Assembly: GCF_026626665.1 (NCBI RefSeq)
Contig: NZ_JAPNKE010000002.1
Location: 3,693,168-3,757,167 of the forward strand
Direction: 5' to 3'
Origin: Nannocystis pusilla
Lineage (GTDB): Bacteria; Myxococcota_A; Polyangia; Nannocystales; Nannocystaceae
Length of the DNA stretch: 64,000 nucleotides
Under the pieces are notes generated by a model. It searched no databases and was not told the DNA's origin. It was given only the letters and a program-made list of their open reading frames with translations. Shown in pieces: positions 1,527 through 64,000 of the stretch. The translations under genes were made by a program, and so were the position numbers. The number at the start of each line of letters is the position of its first letter. Positions within the stretch are counted from its first letter, which is position 1.

Positions 1527-2290
1527 GGCCGACACCTGGCGCCCGACGGCTTCGCGGCGACGGCCTTGCAACGCCCAGCCGGTCGCTCGTGAGGAGTTCC
1601 ACCGCCTGCTCGCCGCAGAACTCGGCTTGCAGTCGTGGGCGGACGGGCGCGGCGGGACGACCGGCACACGTGGGCAGCGGTCGGCCTGCTGCGCGCTGGG
1701 ATCGTGCGTGACACGGTGGTGGGTGTGCCGGCGCCGACGTGTGCATGGTGCTCCTGAACCTGGAGCGTCTCCACCATCTCTCCACGACACAGGTCGACGC
1801 CCGCGATCCATGGGGACTCGCGGGCGTTCAGAAGGTGAGCGAATTCGTGAACAGATACGCGGGTTTCGGCGATTTGCGAGTGCGATCAACGGGTTGAGAA
1901 ATCCGCGTAGTTACTGCTTCATGCAATAGCCGCCGATCCCTCGATCGCGCTCGCAAGCCGCCCCGAGCCTCCGTCCAGGGCCAGAGGATTCGGCCGATGC
2001 ACGAGAGCCCGCGGACTCGCGGGCTTCGACCTGCGTCCGCGGCTTCGAGCCGAAGCAGCACGAACGAACTGGCGCGCGAGATCCATGAGCGCCGAGGCCA
2101 TCCCGTGACTCTCACCAGGAAATTTCGGCTCCGCGTCGGGGGCGCAATCGGCACGCATCCCGGGCCCGTTCGCTCGCTTGCGCCGAGCCCGCTTCATTGC
2201 ACGCTGAGCTGGCTGGAGGGCGACACGACCGCCCCCCGTCCGATTTGCGATGACCTTGCCTCGGGGCGACTTCCGTCCAGGCTCGCCGCG

Positions 2291-3132
2291 ATGTCCCTCC
2301 CCGCCTTACCTCCTCTCCGTTCGACCGCGACGCCTCTGGCGCTCGCGGCGGCCTGTCTGGTCGCCATGGCCTCCCATGTCGCCACGGGCGCTGCGCCGCA
2401 CGCCGAGGCGACTGCGACTCCAGAGTGCGCCCCGATCCTGTCGCGCCTCTCGCACGCCGCAGCGAATCTCGGTTACGGCATCAGCGCCGAAGCGTTCGGG
2501 CTGGCGGGGAGCAGAGGGCCGAGCCGTCTTCAAGCGACGTGCTCCGCGGAGCGGGTCACGATCGAGCTCACGGAAGAATCCGGCTCCTTGGTGAGCATCC
2601 ACCTCGGCCGCGAGCTCGACCCGCCATTCACGCTGGAGCTCATCGGCCGATTCCCGGGCGCGGGTAACGTCTCGCACACTGCGGTCCTCGGAGACATCAC
2701 AGCAGCCGCGTCGAGTGGATATCTCGCCTTCTCTGCCGACACACCTGGGGGTGGGCGTTCGTCGAGTTCGACCTGGCGGGCGAGGTCTTGGCGGAGGGCG
2801 GGGAGCCGGCGGCAGTGAACCAGGGGCTGGGAACGACGTTGAGCACGTCCGCGACGTGGAAGGATGCCCACGCCCTGAAGCTCGCGCTCGCGGGCTCATG
2901 GGACGCCGGAGCAGGTCAGCCCGGGGACGCGGCGCTCGCGGTCGCGGTCCCCAATCCTCGCGCGTACGGCATCAAGAAGAGCATCATCGGCCAGGCGCTG
3001 GCCTGCGGCGCGGCGGCCCTCACGTGCACGGCCGCCGTGACGTGGTTCCCCCCGGCCGGGGGTTCGTGCGTCGGACAGAGCTCGATCTGCGCCCTGTCGA
3101 TCGGCTGCGCCATCACATCCTGCGCCGACTGA
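2291..3132 (+). CDS. secreted or lipoprotein-like hypothetical protein with a signal peptide and Cys-rich C-terminus; apparent frameshift near 2750 at a G-run
   Basis: N-terminus MSLPALPPLRSTATPLALAAACLVAMAS looks like a signal peptide. Frame 2 (2291-~2760) continues in frame 1 (to 3132) after tgggggtggg. Confidence 0.4.
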
Positions 3133-3146
3133 TCGGAGCTCCCGTC

Positions 3147-3707
3147 GTGCCCGCTCTCCCCGCTCGCCGCACCCTCCTGGACCGCCCGCAGCGCCTCGGC
3201 TTCCTGCCGACCCTTTGGTTCTGGAACGATCGCGAGCGACAGCGCCTCCTGATGCCGCTCATCGTCATGATCGCGCTGCCGCTGACGCCTCTCCTCTTTT
3301 TCCTCATGGTGTGGTTGCAGTTACCCATGTGGACCCTGCTCCTCGCGGGAACCGTGTGGCCGCAACTGGTGTGCGGCCTCGTCGAACGGCGCATTCGTGG
3401 CGAGCTCCGTCGTCGAGCGCTCGACGCGAATCTTCACGCGCTCGCGCCGTTACCCGCGGAGCCGCTGCGGTCGAGCGAGCTCGCGTTCATCCTGTTGGCC
3501 GGCCTCGGGGCCCTCGCAAGCACCCTCGCGGTCGCTGCGGCCTGGGGCGTGGGGCCGGCGCTCTGGACCGCGCTGGGTCTGGTGGTGGTCCTCGTCAGCG
3601 TCTGGGCCGTCTCGCCTCGCCTCTCGCAGCTCGAAGCTCGCGCCCAGGGCGGCCCGGCGCTCGCCGAACCGTCCAGCCCGCGCACCCACCCCGGCGCCCA
3701 CCGGTGA
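3147..3707 (+). CDS. small integral membrane protein, hypothetical
   Basis: Candidate GTG at 3147 sits 15 nt after the upstream stop. Hydrophobic helices MPLIVMIALPLTPLLFFLMVWLQLPMWTLLLAG and AFILLAGLGALASTLAVAAAWGV. Confidence 0.4.
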   Translation: MPALPARRTLLDRPQRLGFLPTLWFWNDRERQRLLMPLIVMIALPLTPLLFFLMVWLQLPMWTLLLAGTVWPQLVCGLVERRIRGELRRRALDANLHALAPLPAEPLRSSELAFILLAGLGALASTLAVAAAWGVGPALWTALGLVVVLVSVWAVSPRLSQLEARAQGGPALAEPSSPRTHPGAHR

Positions 3708-3926
3708 GGCGCCGAGCGGAGGCCCGGCCCCAGGGTTCGAGCACTGCAGCGTCAGCACGCCTCCAATCGTACGAACCTGCCCGCCCACTCAATCAGGGCT
3801 GACCAGGAGCGTCTCTGCGACGTCCCCACGATACCTCGACGACCCCGGGGCAACGACGCTTGCATCAACCCGTGAGCCCCGCCGCGCCCCTGCCCGCCGC
3901 GCGTCCGAAGATGATAGGCTGCCCGG

Positions 3927-5235
3927 ATGTCGCCTTCCCGCTGTCCGGACCCCTGCAGGCTCGCCGCGCTGGCCCTGTTCGCCTGCGGCCCGACCCCCGG
4001 CAGCGACACGACCACCGACACGAGCACGACGACCGCCACGAGTTCCTCGGAGCCGACCGTCGGCACGACGACGACCGGCACGACGACGACCGGCACGACG
4101 ATGACCGGCACACCGACGACCAGCCCCGACGGCGACACGGCCGCCGCCACGACCGTCGGCCCGACGACGACCGGCGTGGACCCGGGCACCACGAGTGACA
4201 CCACCACGACCAGCGACAGCACGACCACCGCCGACGACGACTGCACCATCGTCGAGTTCGCCGAGCCCACGCTCGAGGCCGCCGTGCGCCTAGCCTACGG
4301 TCTACCGCCCGGGCCGATCGCCGGCGACGCGCTGACCGGCCCGGGGGGATCGCCGTCACCGAGCTCCAGCATGGCCCGATCGCCGACCTCACCGGGCTGG
4401 AGTGTGCGACCGGGGTCGTGAGTCTGACCCTGGTCGGCCACGAGGCCTTGACCGACATCTCCCGGATCGCGGGGCTGACCAAGCTCGAGTGGCTCGAGCT
4501 CTCGGAGACCGCGGTCACCGACCTCTCGCCGCTGGCAGAACTGACGGCCCTGAAGAATCTCTACCTCGGCAGCATCCCGGCGACCGACATCAGCCCGCTC
4601 GCCGGTCTGTCCGCCCTCGAATCTCTGAGCCTGAGATCCTCGCCGACCACCGACCTCTCGCCCTTGCAGGGCCTCACGGCGCTCAGGCGGCTCGACCTCG
4701 GCAATACCCTCCCCCCGACCTCTCCCCGCTCACCGGCCTCGTTACCCTCGAGAACCTCGACCTCGCCCTCTCCGGGGTCACCGACCTCGCGCCGCTCGCC
4801 GGCCTGCCGGCGCTCGTCCAGCTCGACCTGACCCACTCCGCGGTCATCGACCTCGGGCCGCTCGCCAGCCTGCCCAAGCTCGAGCGTCTGTTCATCGCCG
4901 ACACCGAGGTCGCCGACCTGTCCCCTCTGACGGGCCTCCCGATCCTCTACCTGTACGCCCCGTCGTGTGCGATCAGCGACCTGAGCCCGATCGCCAGCTT
5001 CCCGCTCCCGGAAGTGATCGACCTCAGGGACAACGCAATCGTCGAGGTCGACGCCCTCGCCGGCGTCGACTGGGTCGCCCCCGAGAATACGTGCGCCATG
5101 CTCCTGCTGACTGGCAATCCGCTGTCCGCCGCGGCCAAGCAGCAGCTCCCCGCCATGTGCGACGCCACCGGTGTCAGCTTCCAGGCCAGCGGCCTCGAGT
5201 GCATCACCGACGCCTGCATCCCCCCGCCGCCCTGA
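3927..5235 (+). CDS. lipoprotein with a Thr-rich linker and leucine-rich repeats (internalin-like, DLSPL periodicity); two apparent frameshifts (~4400, ~4700)
   Basis: N-terminus LAALALFACG is a lipobox. A poly-T/TTTG linker is followed by repeated LxxLxxLxLxxTxVTDLSPLAGL units spread over three frames. Confidence 0.55.
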
Positions 5236-36688: not shown

Positions 36689-37630
36689 CCTGGCACGTTC
36701 ACGGCAGCTACCTCTACTACCTCACCCAGGCCCCGCACGAGTTCTACCTGCCCGTAAAGCCAGGTCGTCCCGAGGGCTACGGCGGGCGCAGCGGCAGCTT
36801 CCCCTGGGGCGCCAACGTCCACGAGGTCCCGGTCGAAGCCGTCGCCCAGCAGCCATTCGACGTCGTCCTGTTCCAGTCGCGCCGCAACTACGAGTGCGAT
36901 CAATTCGAGGTCCTCGGCGCCGCCCAGCGCCGCCTGCCGCGCGTCTACCTCGAGCACGATCCGCCGCGCGAGTCGCCGACCGACACCCGCCACCCCGTCG
37001 ACGACCCCGACGTCTTGCTCGTCCACGTCACCCCGTTCAACGCCCTGATGTGGGACGCCGGGCGCACCCCCGTGCGGGTCGTCGAGCACGGCGTCGTCGT
37101 CCCCGACGACGCCGTCTACAGCGGCGAGCTCGCGCGCGGCGTCGTCGTCGTCAACGACCTCGCGCGGCGCGGGCGACGGCTCGGCCGCGACGTGTTCGAC
37201 CGCGTGCGCGCCCACGTCCCGCTCGACCTCGCCGGCATGGACTCGGCCGCGCTCGGCGGCCTCGGCGACCTGCCGCTGGGCGAGCTCCACGCCCGGCTCG
37301 GCCGCTACCGCTTCTTCTTCAACCCGATCCGCTACACCAGCCTCGGCCTGGCCGTGTGCGAGGCGATGATGATCGGCCTGCCGATCCTCGGCCTCGCCAC
37401 CACCGAGATGAGCACCGCCGTGCAGCGCGGCGTCAACGGCTACGTCGAGACCGACCTCGACCGCCTGCTCGCGCACATGCGGCGCCTGCTCGCCGATCCG
37501 GCCGAGGCCGCCGAGCTGGCCGCCGGCGCGCGGCGGATCGCCCGCCAGCGGTTCGGCATCGCCCGCTTCGCCGCCGACTGGTCGCGGATCCTGGGCGAGG
37601 TCACAGGCTGTCCCGAAGGACATCTAATAA
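36667..37630 (+). CDS. GT4-like glycosyltransferase; 3' end unresolved
   Basis: [19 protein letters not shown]...EAMMIGLPILG.... Frame 1 has no stop until 40098 and runs into a 78-bp repeat array with atypical codon usage. A +1 shift near 37595 would end at the double stop TAATAA (37625-37630). Confidence 0.5.
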
Positions 37631-38040
37631 CCCACGCTCGCGGATGTCCCGAGAGCCAGGTCGGAGCCCCGGCCGAGGTCACCGGGTGTCCGGATGGACA
37701 TGCCACCGCCCACGCCACGGGATGTCCCGAGAGCCAGGTCGGAGCCCCGGCCGCTCTCCAAGGATGTGCCGATGGACCTGCCATCGCCCACGCCACGGGA
37801 TGCCCCGAAAGCCAGGTCGGAGCCCCGGCCGATATCCCCGGATGTCCCGATGGACTAGCCACCACCGGCGCCACGGAATGTCCCGAGAGCCAGGTCGGAG
37901 CCCCGACCGACCTCCCCGGATGTCCCGATGGACAGGCTATCGCCCCACCCGGCTCCCCGGCATGTCCCGGAGACCAGGTCGGCCCCCTGGCCGGGATCAC
38001 CGCCTGTCCCGCGGGACAGGCCCCGGAGCCCCCCGGAGGA
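37598..38040. repeat. tandem array of ~5.6 copies of a 78-bp unit (one copy 84 bp) between the two GT4 genes; each unit carries GGATGTCCCGAGAGCCAGGTCGGAGCCCCGGCC and GTCCGGATGGACATGCC-like motifs; ends in the perfect palindrome CCTGTCCCGCGGGACAGG (37999-38016)
   Basis: Direct repeat boundaries at 37598, 37675, 37753, 37831, 37909 and 37993. GC3 of the in-frame reading is far below the local coding norm (gga/tgt/gat/cat codons). Confidence 0.7.
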
Positions 38041-38044
38041 CCGC

Positions 38045-39916
38045 GTGAAGCCGCTGCCGTTCGAGACCGGCGCCGGCGTCGGCCATTCGCAGAGCCCGCT
38101 GCGGATCGCCATGATCAGCGAGCACGCCTCGCCGCTCGCCCCGCTCGGCGGGCGCGACAGCGGCGGCCAGAACGTCTACGTCGCCCAGGTCGCGCGCCAC
38201 CTCGGCCGCCTCGGCCACCGCGTCGACGTGTTCACCCGCCGCGACAGCCCGACCTTGCCGGCGGTCGTCGAGCTGGCCGACGGCGTGCGCGTGATCCCGG
38301 TCGACGCCGGCCCGCCCGCGCCGCTGGCCAAGGAGTCGCTGCTGCCGCTCATGCCTGCCTTCACCCGCGAGGTCGCGGCCCACGCCCGGCGCGAGCGCTA
38401 CGACCTCGCGCACGCCAACTTCTTCATGAGCGGCCTCGTCGCCGCCGAGCTCAAGCGCGAGCTCGGCGTCCCGTTCGCGGTCACCTTCCACGCGCTCGGC
38501 AAGGTCCGGCGGCAGCACCAGGGCCAGGCCGACGGCTTCCCCGACGAGCGCTTCGCCATCGAGGCGCGGGTCGTCGGCGAGGCCGACCTGATCGTCGCCG
38601 AGTGTCCGCAGGACGAGGTCGACCTCATGACCCTCTACGCGGCCGACCCCGAGAAGCTGGTCATGATCCCGTGCGGCTTCGACCCCGAGGAGTTCTGGCC
38701 CGGCGGTCGCGCCGAGGCCCGCGCCGCGCTCGGCCTCGCCGACGGCGACCGCGTCGTCTTGCAGCTCGGGCGCATGGTCCCGCGCAAGGGCGTCGACAAC
38801 GTCATCCGCGCGCTCGCGCGGCTGCCGGGCGAGCTGCGCGCGCGGCTCGTCGTCGTCGGCGGCGAGTCGCGCCGGCCCGACCCGGCCCTCACCCCCGAGA
38901 TCGGCCGATTGATGGCGGTCGCCCGCGACGAGGGCGTCGCCGATCGCGTCACCTTCGTCGGCAGCCGCGGCCGCGGCGAGCTGCGCGACTACTACGTCGC
39001 CGCCGACGTATTCGTCAGCACCCCCTGGTACGAGCCGTTCGGCATCACCCCGCTCGAGGCCATGGCCTGCGGCGTCCCGGTCGTCGGCGCCAACGTCGGC
39101 GGCATCGCCCACACCGTCGCCCACGGCGAGACCGGCTACCTCGTCCCGCCGAGCGACCCCGACGCCCTGGCCGACAAGCTCGCCCTCGTGCTGTCGCAGC
39201 CGCGCCTGGCCCGGCGCCTGGCCCAGCTCGGCCTGCAGCGCGTCCACGCGTTGTTCACCTGGGAGAAGGTCGCCGCCCGCCTGGCCGACGCCTTCGCCGC
39301 GGCCGCGGGCCGGCGCCCCGCCCAGGCCCCCACCGCCGCCTTCGCCGCGGTCGATCGCGGCTTCGACGACCTCCTCGCGGTGCTCTCGCGCGCCAAGACC
39401 TGCCTGCGCGACGACATCGTCCGCGCCGCCGACCTCGTCAGCGGCGCCTTTGCCCGCGGCGCCAAGGTGCTCGTGTGCGGCAACGGCGGCAGCGCCACCG
39501 ACGCCCAGCACTTCGCCGCCGAGCTCGTCGGCCGCTTCCTCGCCCCCGACCGCGCCGCCTTGCCGGTCATCGCCCTCAACGCCGACACCGCGGTCCTGAC
39601 CGCGTGGGCCAACGACGTCGGCTACGCCGACGTGTTCGCCCGCCAGGTCCGCGCCTACGGCCGCCCCGGCGACGTGGTGTTCGGCATCTCGACCAGCGGG
39701 CGCTCGGCCAACGTCGTCGCCGCCCTCAAGACCGCGCGCGACTGCGGCCTGCGCACCTTCGCCTTGCTCGGCGGCACCGGCGGCGAGGCCGGCGATCTCG
39801 CCGACTGCGCCCTCATCGTCCCCTCCCCCGACACGCAGCGCATTCAGGAGGTCCACACATTGGCCCTCCACCTGATCTGCGAATTGGTCGAGGCGCGGGT
39901 GGCCCCGTCGTCCTGA
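38045..39916 (+). CDS. bifunctional GT4 glycosyltransferase (MshA-like) fused to SIS-domain sedoheptulose-7-phosphate isomerase (GmhA)
   Basis: RBS ggagga then GTG 38045 (alternative ATG 38111). GT4: LRIAMISEHASPL...GGQNVYV...EPFGITPLEAMACGVPVV. C-terminal SIS: VCGNGGSATDAQHFAAELVGRF...GISTSGRSANV. Confidence 0.75.
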   Translation: MKPLPFETGAGVGHSQSPLRIAMISEHASPLAPLGGRDSGGQNVYVAQVARHLGRLGHRVDVFTRRDSPTLPAVVELADGVRVIPVDAGPPAPLAKESLLPLMPAFTREVAAHARRERYDLAHANFFMSGLVAAELKRELGVPFAVTFHALGKVRRQHQGQADGFPDERFAIEARVVGEADLIVAECPQDEVDLMTLYAADPEKLVMIPCGFDPEEFWPGGRAEARAALGLADGDRVVLQLGRMVPRKGVDNVIRALARLPGELRARLVVVGGESRRPDPALTPEIGRLMAVARDEGVADRVTFVGSRGRGELRDYYVAADVFVSTPWYEPFGITPLEAMACGVPVVGANVGGIAHTVAHGETGYLVPPSDPDALADKLALVLSQPRLARRLAQLGLQRVHALFTWEKVAARLADAFAAAAGRRPAQAPTAAFAAVDRGFDDLLAVLSRAKTCLRDDIVRAADLVSGAFARGAKVLVCGNGGSATDAQHFAAELVGRFLAPDRAALPVIALNADTAVLTAWANDVGYADVFARQVRAYGRPGDVVFGISTSGRSANVVAALKTARDCGLRTFALLGGTGGEAGDLADCALIVPSPDTQRIQEVHTLALHLICELVEARVAPSS

Positions 39917-39928
39917 ATCATGGCCCCC

Positions 39929-40171
39929 GGAGGACCGATGACCCGCGTGTTCGCATCATCCCTCGCCACGACCGACCGCTCGGACCTCTGCATCGAATCA
40001 TCGCCATCGGAGGACCGATGACCCGCGTGATCGCATCTCTCGTCACCCGCGGCGGCTCCGGCCCCTGCATCGAATCATCGCCATCGGAGGACCGATGACC
40101 CGCGTGATCGCATCTCTCGTCACCCGCGGCGGCTCCGGCCCCTGCATCGAATCATCGCCATCGGAGGACCG
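39929..40171 (+). repeat. three tandem copies (80, 77, 77 nt) of the RBS + start codon + first ~20 codons of the downstream SDR gene; they form a chain of three ATGA-overlapping mini-ORFs (27, 26, 26 aa)
   Basis: ggaggaccgATGacccgcgtgatcgc... recurs at 39929, 40009 and 40086. The authentic gene starts at 40172. Each mini-ORF stop, TGA, overlaps the next ATG. Confidence 0.75.
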
Positions 40172-40912
40172 ATGACCCTCGTGATCGAATCACCCCTCGC
40201 GGACAAGATCGTCCTCGTCACCGGCGGCGGCTCGGGCCTCGGCGCCGAGATCGGTCGCACCCTCGCGGCCGCCGGCGCCCACGTGATCGCCGCCGACATT
40301 CAGACCGGCCCGCTCGCCCGCCTCGTCGCCGAGGTGCGCGACCTCGGCGGCCGCATCGAGGCGGCGGAGCTCGACGTCCGCGACGCCGACGCCGGCCAGG
40401 CCTTGGTCGACGGCATCGTCGCCCGCCACGGCCGGCTCGACGTCCTCGTCAACAACGCCGGCACCGACAAGACCTTGGCGGTCGACGAGCTCAGCGTCGA
40501 CGACATCGACCGCGTCCTCGCCGTCAACCTGCGCGGCCCGTTCGTCCTCAGCCGCGCCGCCTTCCCGCGCCTGCGCGCCCAGGGGGGCGGCTACATCGTC
40601 AACATCGTCTCGACCGCCGCCAAGCGGGCCTGGCAGAACGCCAGCGCCTACCACGCCAGCAAGTGGGGCCTTTTGGGCCTCTCGCACGCCCTGCACGTCG
40701 AGGGCCGCCCATTCGGCATCAAGGTCACCGCCCTGCTGGCCGGCGGCATGCGCACCCCCTTCATCCTCGACCGCTTCCCCGACACCCCGATCACCAACCT
40801 TCAGGACCCGCGCAACGTCGCCGAGACCATCCGCTTCCTCCTCGCCATGCCCGGCGAGTCGGTCATCCCCGAGCTGATGGTCGTGCCGATGCGCGAGACG
40901 AGCTGGCCATGA
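40172..40912 (+). CDS. classical SDR-family oxidoreductase
   Basis: VLVTGGGSGLGAEIG, NNAG, YHASKWGL. Intact. Overlaps gmhB via ATGA. Confidence 0.8.
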   Translation: MTLVIESPLADKIVLVTGGGSGLGAEIGRTLAAAGAHVIAADIQTGPLARLVAEVRDLGGRIEAAELDVRDADAGQALVDGIVARHGRLDVLVNNAGTDKTLAVDELSVDDIDRVLAVNLRGPFVLSRAAFPRLRAQGGGYIVNIVSTAAKRAWQNASAYHASKWGLLGLSHALHVEGRPFGIKVTALLAGGMRTPFILDRFPDTPITNLQDPRNVAETIRFLLAMPGESVIPELMVVPMRETSWP

Positions 40913-41553
40913 CCCGCCTCCGCCCCGCCGCCTTCCTCGACAAGGACGGCACCCTCATCGACGACGTCCCCTACAACGTCGACCCCGCCCACGTCCGCCT
41001 CACCCGCGGCGCCCGCGACGGCGCCTGGTCGCTGCGGGCCGCCGGCTACGCCCTCGTCGTCGTCACCAACCAGTCCGGCGTCGCCCGCGGCCTGTTCGGC
41101 GCCCACGACCTGCTCGGCGTCCAGGCCCGCGTCGAGGACCTCCTCGGCCTCGAGCTCGACGGCTTCTACTGGTGCCCGCACCTGCCCGCCGGCGTCGTCG
41201 CCGAGTACGCGATCGTCTGCGCCTGCCGCAAGCCCGCCCCCGGCCTGCTCACCCGCGCCGCCGCCGAGCTCGGCCTCGACCTCGCGCGCTCGTGGATGAT
41301 CGGCGACATCGCCAGCGACATCGAGGCCGGCCGCCGCGCCGGCTGCCGCACCGCCCTGCTCGCCGCCTCGCCGCCCCCGGCCCTGCGCCCCGCGCCCACC
41401 CTCGTCGCCGCCGACCTCGCCGAGGCCGCCCGCCGGATCGTCGGCGACGCCGCCCGCAGCGACCACGACGAGCACCCCGCGCCCCCGCCTGAGCGCCCGC
41501 GATGCTCTCTCGCAGCTCACGCTCGCCGGTCCTTAAAGACATGTCCTCCATGA
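40909..41553 (+). CDS. gmhB: D-glycero-D-manno-heptose 1,7-bisphosphate phosphatase (HAD family)
   Basis: AAFLDKDGTLI...VVVTNQSGVARG...CPHLP...CRKPAPGLL...MIGDIASDIEAG. Confidence 0.75.
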   Translation: MTRLRPAAFLDKDGTLIDDVPYNVDPAHVRLTRGARDGAWSLRAAGYALVVVTNQSGVARGLFGAHDLLGVQARVEDLLGLELDGFYWCPHLPAGVVAEYAIVCACRKPAPGLLTRAAAELGLDLARSWMIGDIASDIEAGRRAGCRTALLAASPPPALRPAPTLVAADLAEAARRIVGDAARSDHDEHPAPPPERPRCSLAAHARRSLKTCPP

Positions 41554-41587
41554 CATGTCCAAAAACGAATGTCCGAACGGACATGTT
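41538..41587. promoter_or_regulatory. cluster of four GACATGTCC-type motifs spaced 14 bp apart, including the inverted repeat ATGTCCG-aa-CGGACAT, in the AT-richer gmhB-hldE intergenic region
   Basis: agACATGTCCtccatgACATGTCCaaaaacgaATGTCCgaacGGACATgttc seen directly in the sequence. It lies upstream of the hldE ATG at 41633. Confidence 0.45.
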
Positions 41588-41632
41588 CTCAAAGGCATGG
41601 TTTAGAACACACCATCACCCGGAGCGCCCGCG

Positions 41633-56377: not shown

Positions 56378-56712
56378 TGCTCGCATTCCCGGGCCGCCTG
56401 CCCGCATTGCGCCAGCGCCCCTCCGCGATGCGTGGCACGCCCTCCTGCTCGCATTCCGGGCCCGCCTGCTCGAATCGCAGTCCGCCTGCCCGCATTGCCG
56501 TTCCGTCTGCTCGCATCGCAGTCCTGCCTGCCCGCATTGCAGTTCGCCTGCTCGCATCGCAGTTCCGCCTGCCCGCATCGCAGATCCGTCTGCTCGCATC
56601 GCAGTCCTGCCTGCCCGCATTGCAGTTCCGCCTGCTCGCATCGCAGTTCCGCCTGCCCGCATCGCAGTTCCGCCTGCCCGCATCGCAGTTCCGCCTGCTC
56701 GCATCGCGTTCG
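56378..56712. repeat. ~16 tandem copies of a degenerate 21-bp unit (CGCCTGCCCGCATCGCAGTTC and variants) in the intergenic region upstream of gene 56857
   Basis: Direct repeats seen in the sequence. No spacers and no intact ORF with coding-like composition. Confidence 0.7.
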
Positions 56713-56856
56713 TGCGCCGCCTACGCCGAGGCATTCGCCGCCAGCGAGGCCATGCACGCGGCTTGTGGCTCGCGCGCCGCGGCGCCGATCGAGTCGCACG
56801 AATGGTGGCCCCCGCGGGCGATTCGTTCAAAGACCTGCGCGACCGGAGGATTCATC

Positions 56857-57393
56857 ATGAACGAGAACAAGCGCAATCAAGAGCCCCTGAGCGACCTCGC
56901 CTACGATTGGGTCACCATCATCCAGCACAAATCGGAGGCCCTCCGCGCCTACGAGCAGTACATTCAGGACGCTCAGCAGGCGAACTCACCCGAGTGCGTC
57001 GAGCTCATGCAGCAGATCTACGAACAGGACGCCCGGCACATCGAGCAGGCCACCCGCCACCTCACCGAGGTCCTGCGCAGCGGCCGGATGGGCCGCACCC
57101 AGGGCGAGAGCCAGACCAGCCAGGGCGAGGCCGGCCGCATGGGCCAGACGAGCGGCCAGAGCGGTCGCGCAGGCATGAGCCAGGGCGAGCGGAGCGGCGC
57201 AGGCACCAGCCAGGCCGCCAGTCAGGGCCGCATGGGCGGCATGAACCAGGGCGAGGGCGGCCAGGGCCGCATGGGCCAGACGAGCGGCCAGGGCGGCATG
57301 TCCGGCGGCAGCGGCATGACCCAGGGCGAGAACCCCCGCGAGTCGATGCAGGGCGAGTCGAGCGAGCGACGCGGCCAGCGGAACCCCCGCTAG
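56857..57393 (+). CDS. hypothetical protein: helical N-domain plus Gly/Gln/Met-rich low-complexity repeats (GRMGQTSGQ...)
   Basis: RBS ggagga with 6-nt spacing then ATG 56857. The N-terminus LSDLAYDWVTIIQHKSEALRAYEQYIQDAQQ looks like a ferritin-like/four-helix stress protein. Confidence 0.5.
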   Translation: MNENKRNQEPLSDLAYDWVTIIQHKSEALRAYEQYIQDAQQANSPECVELMQQIYEQDARHIEQATRHLTEVLRSGRMGRTQGESQTSQGEAGRMGQTSGQSGRAGMSQGERSGAGTSQAASQGRMGGMNQGEGGQGRMGQTSGQGGMSGGSGMTQGENPRESMQGESSERRGQRNPR

Positions 57394-58636: not shown

Positions 58637-61714
<3,078 letters not shown>

Positions 61715-61718
<4 letters not shown>

Positions 61719-63310
61719 CCGACCGCGCTCCCCTCGACGACGGCGCCCTCCTCCGCGCCGAGGTCGTGCGGCTCACCGCGCTGCTCGCCGACACCGACGA
61801 GCACCACCACCGCCTGCGCGACGCCCTCATCGTCCGCAGCGAGACGCTCGAGGGCCATGTCCAGGCCCTCGAGTCCCTGCTCGACTGGTACGCCGACCTC
61901 TACGAGCACGCCCCGATCGCCTACCTCGCCCTCGACGGCAACGGCGTGGTGCGCGAGGTCAACCTCACCGGCGCCACGCTGCTCGGCATCGAACGCCTGC
62001 GCCTGATCGGCCGCCCGCTGCGCCTGCACGTCGTCCTGCGCGACCGCCGGAAGTTCCTCGATCACATGCTGCGCTGCCGCCGGGAGACCGAGCCCGTCGT
62101 CACCGAGCTCGAGATCGAGGCCCGGCGCCGCGTCGTCCCGGTCCAGCTGATCAGCCGCCGCTCGGCCGTCGCCGGCGAGGCCGGCACCTACTTCCGCACC
62201 GCCGTGTTCGACCTGACCGAGCGCCGACGCGCCGACTCGGCCCTGCGCCTCGAGCACGAGCGCCTCGGCCTGGCGCTGGTCGCCTGCGGCGCCGGCCTCT
62301 ACGACTACTCGTGGCCGGCGGCCGAGCTGACCCCGAGCGAGCGCTGGTGGCAGCTCGTGGGTCGCCCGCCCGGCGAGCCGCCCCAGGGCGCCGCGCTGTG
62401 GCAGTGGTTCCAGGCCCGGATCGTCCCCGAAGATCGGGCCGCCCGCGACGACGCCCACGCCCGCTTCGTCGCCGGCGAATCGACCGCCTACGCCGCCGAA
62501 TTCCGCCTCCTGCGCCACGACCGGCCCCCCGTGTGGCTGCGCGAGCTGAGCCGCGCCGCCGAGCGCAGCCCCGACGGCCAGGCGCACCACGTCGTCGGCG
62601 TGCTGATGGACATCTCCGCCGAGAAGCAGCGCATCGAGGCCGCCGCCCACCAGACCGCGCTGCTGCGCGACCTCTCCGCGGCGCTGTTCCGCGTCGAGGA
62701 GAACGAGCGGCGCGAGCTCGCCACCCTGCTGCACGACGTCCTCGGCCAGCAGCTCGTCGCCGCCCGCCTGCAGCTCGGCGCGCTGAGGCCGACCGCAGGC
62801 GACGCCGACACCGTGCGCGAGGTCGTCGCCCTCCTCGACGACGCCCACCAGGCGGTCCGCTCGGTCACCTTCCAGCTGCGCCCGCCGATCTTGCAGGACC
62901 TCGGCCTGGTCGCCGGCCTGCGCTGGCTGGCCCGCGAGACCTCGGCGCAGTTCAAGCTGCCGATCGCCGTGATCGCCGAGGACACCCTGCCGCGCCTCGC
63001 CGGCGATCCCGAGTACCTGCTGTTCCGCTGCGTCCGCGAGCTGCTGCTCAACGTCGTCAAGCACGCCGAGGCCACCGCGGCCCGCGTCGAGGTCGGCGGC
63101 GACGAGGACGACACCCTCGTGATCCGCGTCAGCGACGACGGCAAGGGCTTCGACCCGCCGCGCCTCGCCGCCGACCGCCCGGAGAGCCGCAGCTTCGGCC
63201 TCCTCAGCGTGCGCGAGCGAATCATGGGCCTCGGCGGCCACGTACACATCGACAGCGCCCCCGGCCAGGGCACCCGCGTCGAGCTGCACGTCCCGCTCGC
63301 CGACAGCTGA
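61715..63310 (+). CDS. PAS/PAC sensor histidine kinase of the NarL-partner type (HisKA_3 + HATPase_c)
   Basis: GTG overlaps the upstream TGA. Two PAS-like regions. H-box RRELATLLHDVLGQQL. ATPase ...GKGFDP...GLLSVRERIMGLGGHV. Confidence 0.8.
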
Positions 63311-63405
63311 TCGTCAAGGCCGCCTCGCGCTGCGCGTCCTGTTCGCCGACCGCCGCTCGTCACGACGGCGGCGAGCTGCCCATCCCGCTCGCCGCCGTCG
63401 GCTCG

Positions 63406-64000
63406 TCAGTCGCGCTTGCGCAGCGGCGCGAGCCCGTGCTCGAGCGCGTAGCGGGTCATCGCCGCCCGCGAGCGCAGGCCGAGCTGCTGGGAGATCCGCG
63501 CCTTGTGGAATTCGACCGTCTTGAGCGCGATGCCCAGGTCGCCGGCGATCTCCTTGCCCGCCATGCCGGAGGCGACGCGGACCAGGATCTCGCGCTGACG
63601 CGTGGTGAGCAGGTTGCCCCCCGCGGCGGCGCGGCGCCGTCTCGCTCGTCCCCTTCAGCAGCGCCTCGATCGCCGGGCTGACGTGGCTGCCGCCCGCGGC
63701 GACCGTGCGCACCCCGGCGACCAGCTCCTCGGGCGACGCGTCCTTGAGCACGTACCCGCGGGCCCCCGCCGCCAGGGCCGAGTGGGCCCACTGCGGGTCG
63801 GCGTGGCGAGTGACGACCAGCGCGCGGCTCGCCGAGCTCGTCTGCAGCGCGCGCAGCAGCTCGAGCCCCCCAGCGTCGGCAGCTCGAGCTCGAGCGCCAC
63901 CACGTCGGGCTGCAGCTCGCGCGCGGCCGCCAGCGCCGTGGCGCCGTCGGTGAACGCCCCGACCACCTCGAACTCGCCGCCGAGCAGGACGCTCAGGCAC
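63406..64000 (-). CDS. NarL/LuxR-family response regulator (REC + HTH_LuxR), partial; its 5' end lies outside the window; two apparent frameshifts
   Basis: C-terminal HTH ...LTTRQREILVRVASGMAGKEIAGDLGIALKTVEFHKARISQQLGLRSRAAMTRYALEHG. N-terminal receiver fragments are in other frames. Convergent with the HK. Confidence 0.65.

Follow-up and report, generated by a model that had tools for sequence, protein, structure and literature searches.

Among the systems described so far, the closest to the locus that we analyze here are the MIRU-VNTRs, in which units of tens of bases stand in tandem between two genes of an operon, with a copy number that varies from strain to strain. Each MIRU unit holds a short ORF that reads in the same direction as the genes on either side and that overlaps the downstream start by 4 nt (a -4 overlap). 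As summarized in PMC12548453, which cites Supply et al. 1997 on this point, the -4 nt coupling of MIRU ORFs is thought to minimize their impact on the downstream gene. In the senX3-regX3 region of H37Rv there are three such units of 77 bp (PMC4213456). In leaders of another kind, a short upstream ORF that has its own SD and ends on the start of a gene (ATGA) passes ribosomes on to that gene and keeps its initiation region open (PMC12548453). Tandem units between two genes, a copy number that varies with the strain, and short ORFs with a -4 overlap are found again in an array of Nannocystis pusilla, located in the 64,000-nt stretch of DNA that we analyzed (the window). How this array is built, where it came from, and whether it does anything are the questions that we address using the window and the corresponding loci of its relatives.

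The array lies in the gap between a GT4-GmhA fusion gene and an SDR gene. The gap is 255 nt long (window 39917-40171), and reading the sequence confirms the GmhA stop at 39916 and the SDR start at 40172 that a preliminary description of this DNA had given. It is made of a 21-nt spacer followed by head-to-tail units of 80, 77, and 77 nt (Table 1). TRF reports the array at 39915-40191 with a period of 77, 3.6 copies, 91% matches, and a score of 422. The 16-mer GGAGGACCGATGACCC has four exact occurrences (at 39929, 40009, 40086, and 40163) where 0.09 would be expected by chance, and a count of 4 was reached in 0 of 100 shuffles. The TRF result and the fourfold 16-mer bear out the three-copy tandem array of the preliminary description, with the correction that the first unit has 80 nt rather than 77. 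Every unit opens with ATGA behind GGAGGAccg, and has GGAGGAccgATGA and an open frame of 26-27 codons. The TGA of each of these mini-ORFs has three bases in common with the next ATG (ATGA), with overlaps at 40018, 40095, and 40172, all with a stop/start distance of -4 and in a single orientation. Thus, the claim that each copy has its own RBS, its own ATG, and a 26-27-codon ORF with its TGA on the next ATG also agrees with the sequence. An ATG at 39920, specific to the window, is in the frame of mini-ORF 1, which would have 33 aa if this start were used. Units 2 and 3 of the window are identical in sequence, which points to unit 3 as the most recent duplication. Within the window, the repeat unit is found at this one locus only.

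Table 1. Positions in the window of the repeat units, their mini-ORFs, and the flanking genes.
Feature	Position	Strand	Remarks
GT4-GmhA fusion (GT family 4 + SIS/sedoheptulose-7-phosphate-isomerase-like domain)	38045-39916	+	Pfam Glyco_transf_4, Glycos_transf_1, SIS_2
GT4-GmhA stop TGA	39914-39916	+	Read from sequence
Original intercistronic spacer, 21 nt, diverged	39917-39937	+	SD GGAGGA at 39929-39934
Repeat unit 1, 80 nt	39938-40017	+	SD for next unit 40009-40014
Mini-ORF 1, 27 aa, product MTRVFASSLATTDRSDLCIESSPSEDR	39938-40021	+	TGA overlaps next ATG
Repeat unit 2, 77 nt	40018-40094	+	Next SD 40086-40091
Mini-ORF 2, 26 aa, product MTRVIASLVTRGGSGPCIESSPSEDR	40018-40098	+	
Repeat unit 3, 77 nt	40095-40171	+	SD of the SDR gene at 40163-40168
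Mini-ORF 3, 26 aa	40095-40175	+	TGA overlaps SDR ATG at 40172
SDR gene, 246 aa	40172-40912	+	Pfam adh_short, E = 7e-52
HAD-family phosphatase, GmhB-like	40909-41493	+	Start overlaps SDR stop by 4 nt

The Pfam matches in Table 1 confirm the identities that had been proposed for the two neighboring genes. GT4-GmhA starts at GTG 38045, preceded by ggaggaccgc, and its orthologues in relatives are called at 623 aa; a 662-aa version of this ORF was rejected, as it starts too early and an exact look-up found no record of it. The SDR protein is 100% identical to an SDR of Nannocystis pusilla, with near homologues in other Nannocystis genomes and in metagenomes. Beyond the HAD phosphatase, Pfam identifies a PfkB-cytidylyltransferase (HldE-like) gene and GT9 heptosyltransferases, and from the Pfam content of these neighbors we take the region to be a heptose-sugar operon. 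The operon uses -4 overlaps as a rule, with other instances at GT/GT4-GmhA, SDR/HAD, and HldE/GT9. A promoter scan of 39400-40700 found no sigma-70-like promoter, and the number of terminator-like sites in the same interval is 0. The missing terminator and promoter suggest that the genes are co-transcribed across the array.

The 139-nt spacer between the HAD and HldE genes (41494-41632) has a feature of its own. It holds several copies of GACATGTCC / GGACATGT, with the palindromic core ACATGT, and these are kept in position in two other N. pusilla genomes (L082 and L086) and in Nannocystis sp. RBIL2 (L083), while the remaining spacer differs by 15-19%. The copies are candidate operator sites, or a candidate hldE promoter region.

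We reached the loci of the relatives via SDR homologues and exact-protein look-ups, and scored copy number by the length of the gap that separates the GmhA stop from the SDR start. In the window this gap of 255 nt corresponds to 3 extra units. There is 1 extra unit in L082 (the second N. pusilla genome; gap 99 nt), in L086 (the third; gap ~99 nt), and in L091, a JGI metagenome contig (gap 101 nt). There are 0 extra units in Nannocystis sp. RBIL2 and ILAH1 (L083 and L084; gap 22 nt), in the soil-metagenome contig L090, with an SDR 99% identical (gap 22 nt), and in N. exedens, N. punicea, and N. bainbridge (L085, L087, and L088; gap 21-25 nt). At all six of these last loci the gene order matches and the array is not present. 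By the nucleotides of the flanking genes, the window, L082, L083/L084, L086, L090, and L091 form a complex of strains ~3% apart, within which the number of units is 3, 1, 1, 1, 0, 0, 0, and N. exedens, N. punicea, and N. bainbridge are 4.5-9% distant. The window and L082 differ by 0.9-1.6% in the flanking genes and by 1-4% in the flanking DNA overall. These distances, together with the 0/1/3 distribution, indicate that the array has its origin in the N. pusilla complex, among whose members it is polymorphic. The variation in copy number at orthologous loci for which the preliminary description had proposed a check is indeed found, with 0, 1, or 3 units among close strains and 0 in the outgroups.

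Other searches added no further cases. Comparison of the GT4-GmhA protein with a genome collection returned distant relatives only (at most 63% identity) and no Nannocystis, and metagenome scans with a copy-specific 29-mer and with a true-junction 29-mer gave 0 matches each and hence no extra natural alleles. A more distant genome also labelled N. pusilla (L089, SDR 83% identical) shows another arrangement, in which a 654-aa GT4-GmhA overlaps the SDR start by 35 nt (2071-4035 / 4001) and there is no 22-nt spacer. An overlap in place of the spacer indicates that the GmhA-SDR junction is evolutionarily flexible.

The array, or its three copies, might have resulted from repeat mis-assembly. In favor of this, units 2 and 3 are identical, and the window assembly has at least one homopolymer indel error when compared to short reads of the same strain. 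Those reads come from run ERR2215891, in which a short-read contig (L001) matches 4,344 nt of the window at 99.95% identity, which assigns it to the same strain. At window position 41482 there are five Cs where L001 has six, and the missing C tells us that the window assembly has homopolymer indel errors. In the window, the HAD ORF seems to extend to 41553, not 41493; the end coordinate in Table 1 is the one taken from L001, given the C missing at 41482. We nevertheless find an artefact very improbable. The same short-read contig breaks exactly at the branch point between repeat and unique sequence: its first bases are GAATCATCGCCATCGGAGGACCGATGACCCT, the first 31-mer that separates the SDR start from the repeat units. 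We infer that the assembly graph branched at the start of L001, and for such a branch the reads must contain one extra unit or more. In addition, three further assemblies, independent of this one (L082, L086, and L091), also carry an extra 77-nt unit. Finally, the ~11.9-Mb source contig and the homopolymer indel suggest that the window comes from a long-read assembly, and long reads should span the 255-nt array, although the exact count of three deserves a check.

A similar single-base difference affects the glycosyltransferase (GT) ORF upstream of GT4-GmhA, which runs from 36667 onward. In the window, its stop is lost at 38026-38048, where six Cs precede ggaggaccgcGTGA and L082 has seven; the frame misses the TGA at 38046-38048 and spuriously continues to 40098, the TGA of mini-ORF 2. 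This difference at the GT end is probably a homopolymer sequencing error, and could also be a real frameshift.

Where does the unit come from? In the relatives, the order at the ancestral junction is TGA, then the 22-nt spacer AATCATCGCACTCGGAGGACCG, then ATGACCCTCGTG. We model the origin of the unit as a 99-nt segment in which SDR nt 1-69 are followed by the final 8 nt of GmhA (TGTCCTGA) and the 22-nt spacer. Aligned to the unit of L086, this model shows a single mismatch; three gaps, of 18, 3, and 1 nt, reduce it to 77 nt. The coding-like part of the unit has its source in SDR nt 1-69, and the preliminary description was right that the unit includes the SDR start; in addition, every unit carries ~8 nt from the end of the GmhA gene, since the final 8 nt and the stop codon of GT4-GmhA fall within the duplicated segment. 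The mini-ORF peptides do resemble the SDR N-terminus, as had been proposed, with the correction that they carry an internal deletion of 18-21 nt. All units in all strains have in common the 18-nt deletion and an A17C change (GAATC to GCATC) that are never seen in the true SDR, which argues for a single origin. Within this family, the units of the window and L082 form a subgroup, in which position 8 has changed from T to G and the spacer has changed as well. The suggestion that the array is the footprint of repeated partial gene duplication is therefore strongly supported, given that unique sequence next to the array accounts for the unit with one mismatch, that the outgroup species do not have the unit, and that close strains vary in having 0, 1, or 3 copies.

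The same origin explains the geometry of the frames. The period of all six units, in four genomes, is 77 or 80 nt, that is, 2 (mod 3). When units that start with ATGA follow one another at a period of 2 (mod 3), reading from one ATG runs into the TGA inside the next ATGA. The overlaps thus follow automatically from the duplication, and a chain of ATGA-coupled mini-ORFs needs no design. A 99-nt unit, being in frame with the SDR, would have given an N-terminally extended enzyme, and it appears to be the 1-nt deletion that turned the copy into a separate mini-cistron.

The units differ between lineages by 13-17% (5% for L086 vs. L091). For comparison, in the non-coding DNA between HAD and HldE the window is 3.6% different from L082 and 15-19% different from L086 or L083 (19% for the spacer relative to L086). 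By this measure the units diverge at about the non-coding rate. On the other hand, the unit of L082 has 9-11 mismatches plus indels relative to both distinct units of the window, despite the strains being near-identical. This gap requires either old paralogous copies that have been differentially lost and kept, or a locally raised mutation rate in the middle of the unit.

Besides this gap, a second departure from simple neutrality is that variation is distributed unevenly along the unit. Variable columns number 4 of 42 in the SD, spacer, and first 20 nt, versus 24 of 38 in the middle (Fisher p = 4e-7), a comparison made on only five distinct units. The 16-nt SD-ATG core has no variation in any copy, while non-coding DNA differs by 15-19% between lineages, and length changes between copies stay in frame (+3, -3/+3). 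The pattern could mean that selection keeps each mini-cistron translatable; alternatively, the ends could be homogenized by recombination of units with each other or with the true junction. Diagnostic differences from the true SDR start remain in every copy, which counts against homogenization by the true junction.

The window has other tandem arrays. One gene upstream, at 37608-38021, there is a second array with a period of 78 nt and sub-units of 36-39 nt. It encodes GCPE[GS]Q repeats in the C-terminal tail of the upstream glycosyltransferase, whose gene stops at the GTGA with which GT4-GmhA starts, and it is also present at L082 1642-2010 and L086 1606-1771. The GCPE[GS]Q motif is found once in N. 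exedens, N. punicea, and N. bainbridge, 3 times in RBIL2/ILAH1, 5 times in L086, 10 times in L082, and 12 times in the window; the SDR-leader array and this one expand in the same lineages. Comparing by eye the consensus units of the 77-nt and 78-nt arrays, we saw no obvious similarity. At 56462-56711, the 21-nt unit CCGCCTGCCCGCATCGCAGTT is repeated 12 times (match 84%); five of the six frames across 56440-56730 are open, and one minus-strand frame has a stop near its start. Further arrays are found at 1-438 (period 144), 57133-57300 (period 66), 60738-60955 (periods 21 and 42), and 63274-63408 (period 46). With several arrays along it, the region can be described as rich in tandem repeats.

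Could the array have been kept for a function? The preliminary description offered an attenuator as one possibility. In such a leader, a terminator or a hairpin that sequesters the SD would form or not depending on whether the mini-ORFs are translated, and the SDR and downstream genes would be regulated in this way. There are short ORFs immediately upstream of the gene, and a weak 6-bp CCUCUG-SD pairing is predicted in most units, but the expected features do not appear and we take an attenuator to be highly improbable. There is no terminator-like or promoter-like site; the 341-nt leader RNA is less stable than all 100 of its dinucleotide shuffles (z = +2.48), and such openness is the signature of initiation regions, not of attenuators. 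The consensus fold of the five distinct units has weak structure, with an unfavorable covariation term and a double change in 1 of the 21 predicted pairs. A search of Rfam at a permissive threshold (E up to 1) gave no match, there are no regulatory codon runs in the mini-ORFs, and most relatives have the same operon without the element. A conserved RNA element in general was discarded too, since the consensus structure is weak and there is no supporting covariation. So was a phase-variable contingency locus, in that loci with 0, 1, or 3 units all have an intact SDR ORF and SD and no promoter-like site is found in or near the array. We give still less credence to the mini-ORFs encoding functional micropeptides. 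All units have open frames, each with a strong SD, and N- and C-terminal residues are conserved; but the only residues in common are ESSPSEDR, encoded by the SD and spacer, and MT[R/L]V[I/F]AS, encoded by the first codons in the initiation region. The middle third of the peptide is wholly different between strains, GC3 is 0.74 in the mini-ORFs versus 0.96-0.98 in the real genes that flank them, and close relatives do not have these ORFs.

The other function that had been suggested, a relay of ribosomes along the chain, is plausible, as the geometry permits it: each unit has an intact SD, ATG, and ATGA overlap, in RNA that is predicted to be unusually unstructured. It is a larger step to propose that the units are kept as ribosome-loading mini-cistrons that would pass ribosomes on via ATGA termination-reinitiation, so that a copy number of 0, 1, or 3 would set the translation of the SDR and of the -4-coupled heptose genes. 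That would imply heritable variation from strain to strain in a surface-sugar pathway. Such an expression tuner is consistent with the invariant SD-ATG core, with the contrast between conserved initiation-region ends and a middle that changes fast (p = 4e-7), with the 2 (mod 3) period that every unit retains despite indels, with the openness of the leader RNA (z = +2.48), and with the -4 overlaps elsewhere in the operon (GT/GT4-GmhA, SDR/HAD, HldE/GT9); and ribosome delivery by short upstream ORFs is an accepted mechanism (PMC12548453). We still think a tuner unlikely, while giving it some weight. Most relatives do without the array, strains only ~3% diverged included, which makes it dispensable; the overlap geometry is automatic and undesigned; recombination between units can yield conserved ends, and the sample is only five distinct units. 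Moreover, an adjacent coding array that expands in the same lineages points to a mutational tendency and not to selection at this site.

Our preferred reading, which we believe is probably correct, is that the array is a young, lineage-specific tandem-repeat polymorphism (VNTR) of an initiation region, one that is tolerated and is not a dedicated regulator. Its structure, its origin, its polymorphism, and its lack of attenuator features are shown by the loci compared here. The upstream GT gene has a similar tendency: its own tandem array, with 1, 3, 5, 10, or 12 motifs, is expanded in the same lineages. In this reading, the course of events is as follows. A segment of ~99 nt, from 8 nt before the GmhA stop through the spacer and SD to SDR nt 69, underwent a single duplication in the N. 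pusilla complex, after which the copy lost 18, 3, and 1 nt and was thereby trimmed to 77 nt. Later, the array expanded and contracted via unequal recombination or slippage. Each unit is a self-contained mini-cistron with its own SD, ATG, ~26 codons, and a TGA on the next ATG, such that ribosomes loading on any unit would end exactly at the next start codon, there to reinitiate or leave. If the mini-ORFs are translated and coupled in this manner, the initiation region of the SDR would stay free, and the SDR would gain no added residues. With SDR initiation neither blocked nor fused, the duplication would be tolerated. The mini-ORF peptides themselves would have no function, and the effect on the SDR and the downstream genes is probably small, which would make the array close to neutral.

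We found nothing in the literature on tandem repeats in Nannocystis genomes, and the array is best placed by comparison with better known elements. As in an ordinary intergenic VNTR, the repeats are direct and head-to-tail, their source adjoins them, outgroups do not have the array, close strains vary in copy number, and precise loss is possible by recombination between units. An ordinary VNTR is inert spacer DNA, however, while the piece duplicated here is a whole translation-initiation region, an unusual property for a tandem-duplication polymorphism, and the result is a chain of coupled mini-cistrons. As a genome feature this is otherwise a minor polymorphism at the level of strains. Its interest is that it provides a clean natural case in which a complete bacterial initiation region has been duplicated in tandem with the operon still working, and the existing strains with 0, 1, and 3 units are a ready series in which to measure the effect of serial -4-coupled upstream ORFs. 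It also offers a plausible origin for intercistronic repeats of the MIRU type.

With leader-peptide attenuators, the array has in common the short ORFs upstream of a structural gene; it differs from them in having no alternative hairpins, terminator, regulatory codon runs, or conservation. It is closer to ribosome-delivering uORFs and to the leaders of bicistronic designs, where again a short ORF with its own SD ends on an ATGA start. Compared to those leaders, there are here from one to three ORFs in series, and these are recent, polymorphic, and unconserved.

The MIRUs resemble the array most, in the ways described at the outset, and they also differ from it. MIRUs are a dispersed family present at many loci, apparently mobile, and found in mycobacteria only, whereas the Nannocystis unit was born locally from the adjacent SDR start, carries the SD of the SDR gene, and occupies one locus in the 64-kb window; and, in contrast to MIRUs, the first ORF of the Nannocystis array does not overlap the stop of the upstream gene. 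The match in length with the 77-bp units of senX3-regX3 is a coincidence of size and not homology. Indeed, homology to the MIRU consensus is implausible for a unit that comes from an SDR gene in a myxobacterial host. One may speculate that we are seeing a MIRU-like intercistronic module caught at birth, in which selection would maintain the SD, the ATG, and a period of 2 (mod 3), leaving the remainder of the unit to drift or to be actively diversified, and copy number would set the stoichiometry of the SDR and the heptose enzymes. We hold this to be quite doubtful. If it were true, N. pusilla strains would get heritable variation in surface glycans, and the locus would illustrate a way in which MIRUs and other dispersed repeats with coupled ORFs could arise. 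In our preferred reading, that of a tolerated VNTR, the Nannocystis array appears, by analogy of mechanism, to be a counterpart of the MIRUs that stands outside their family.
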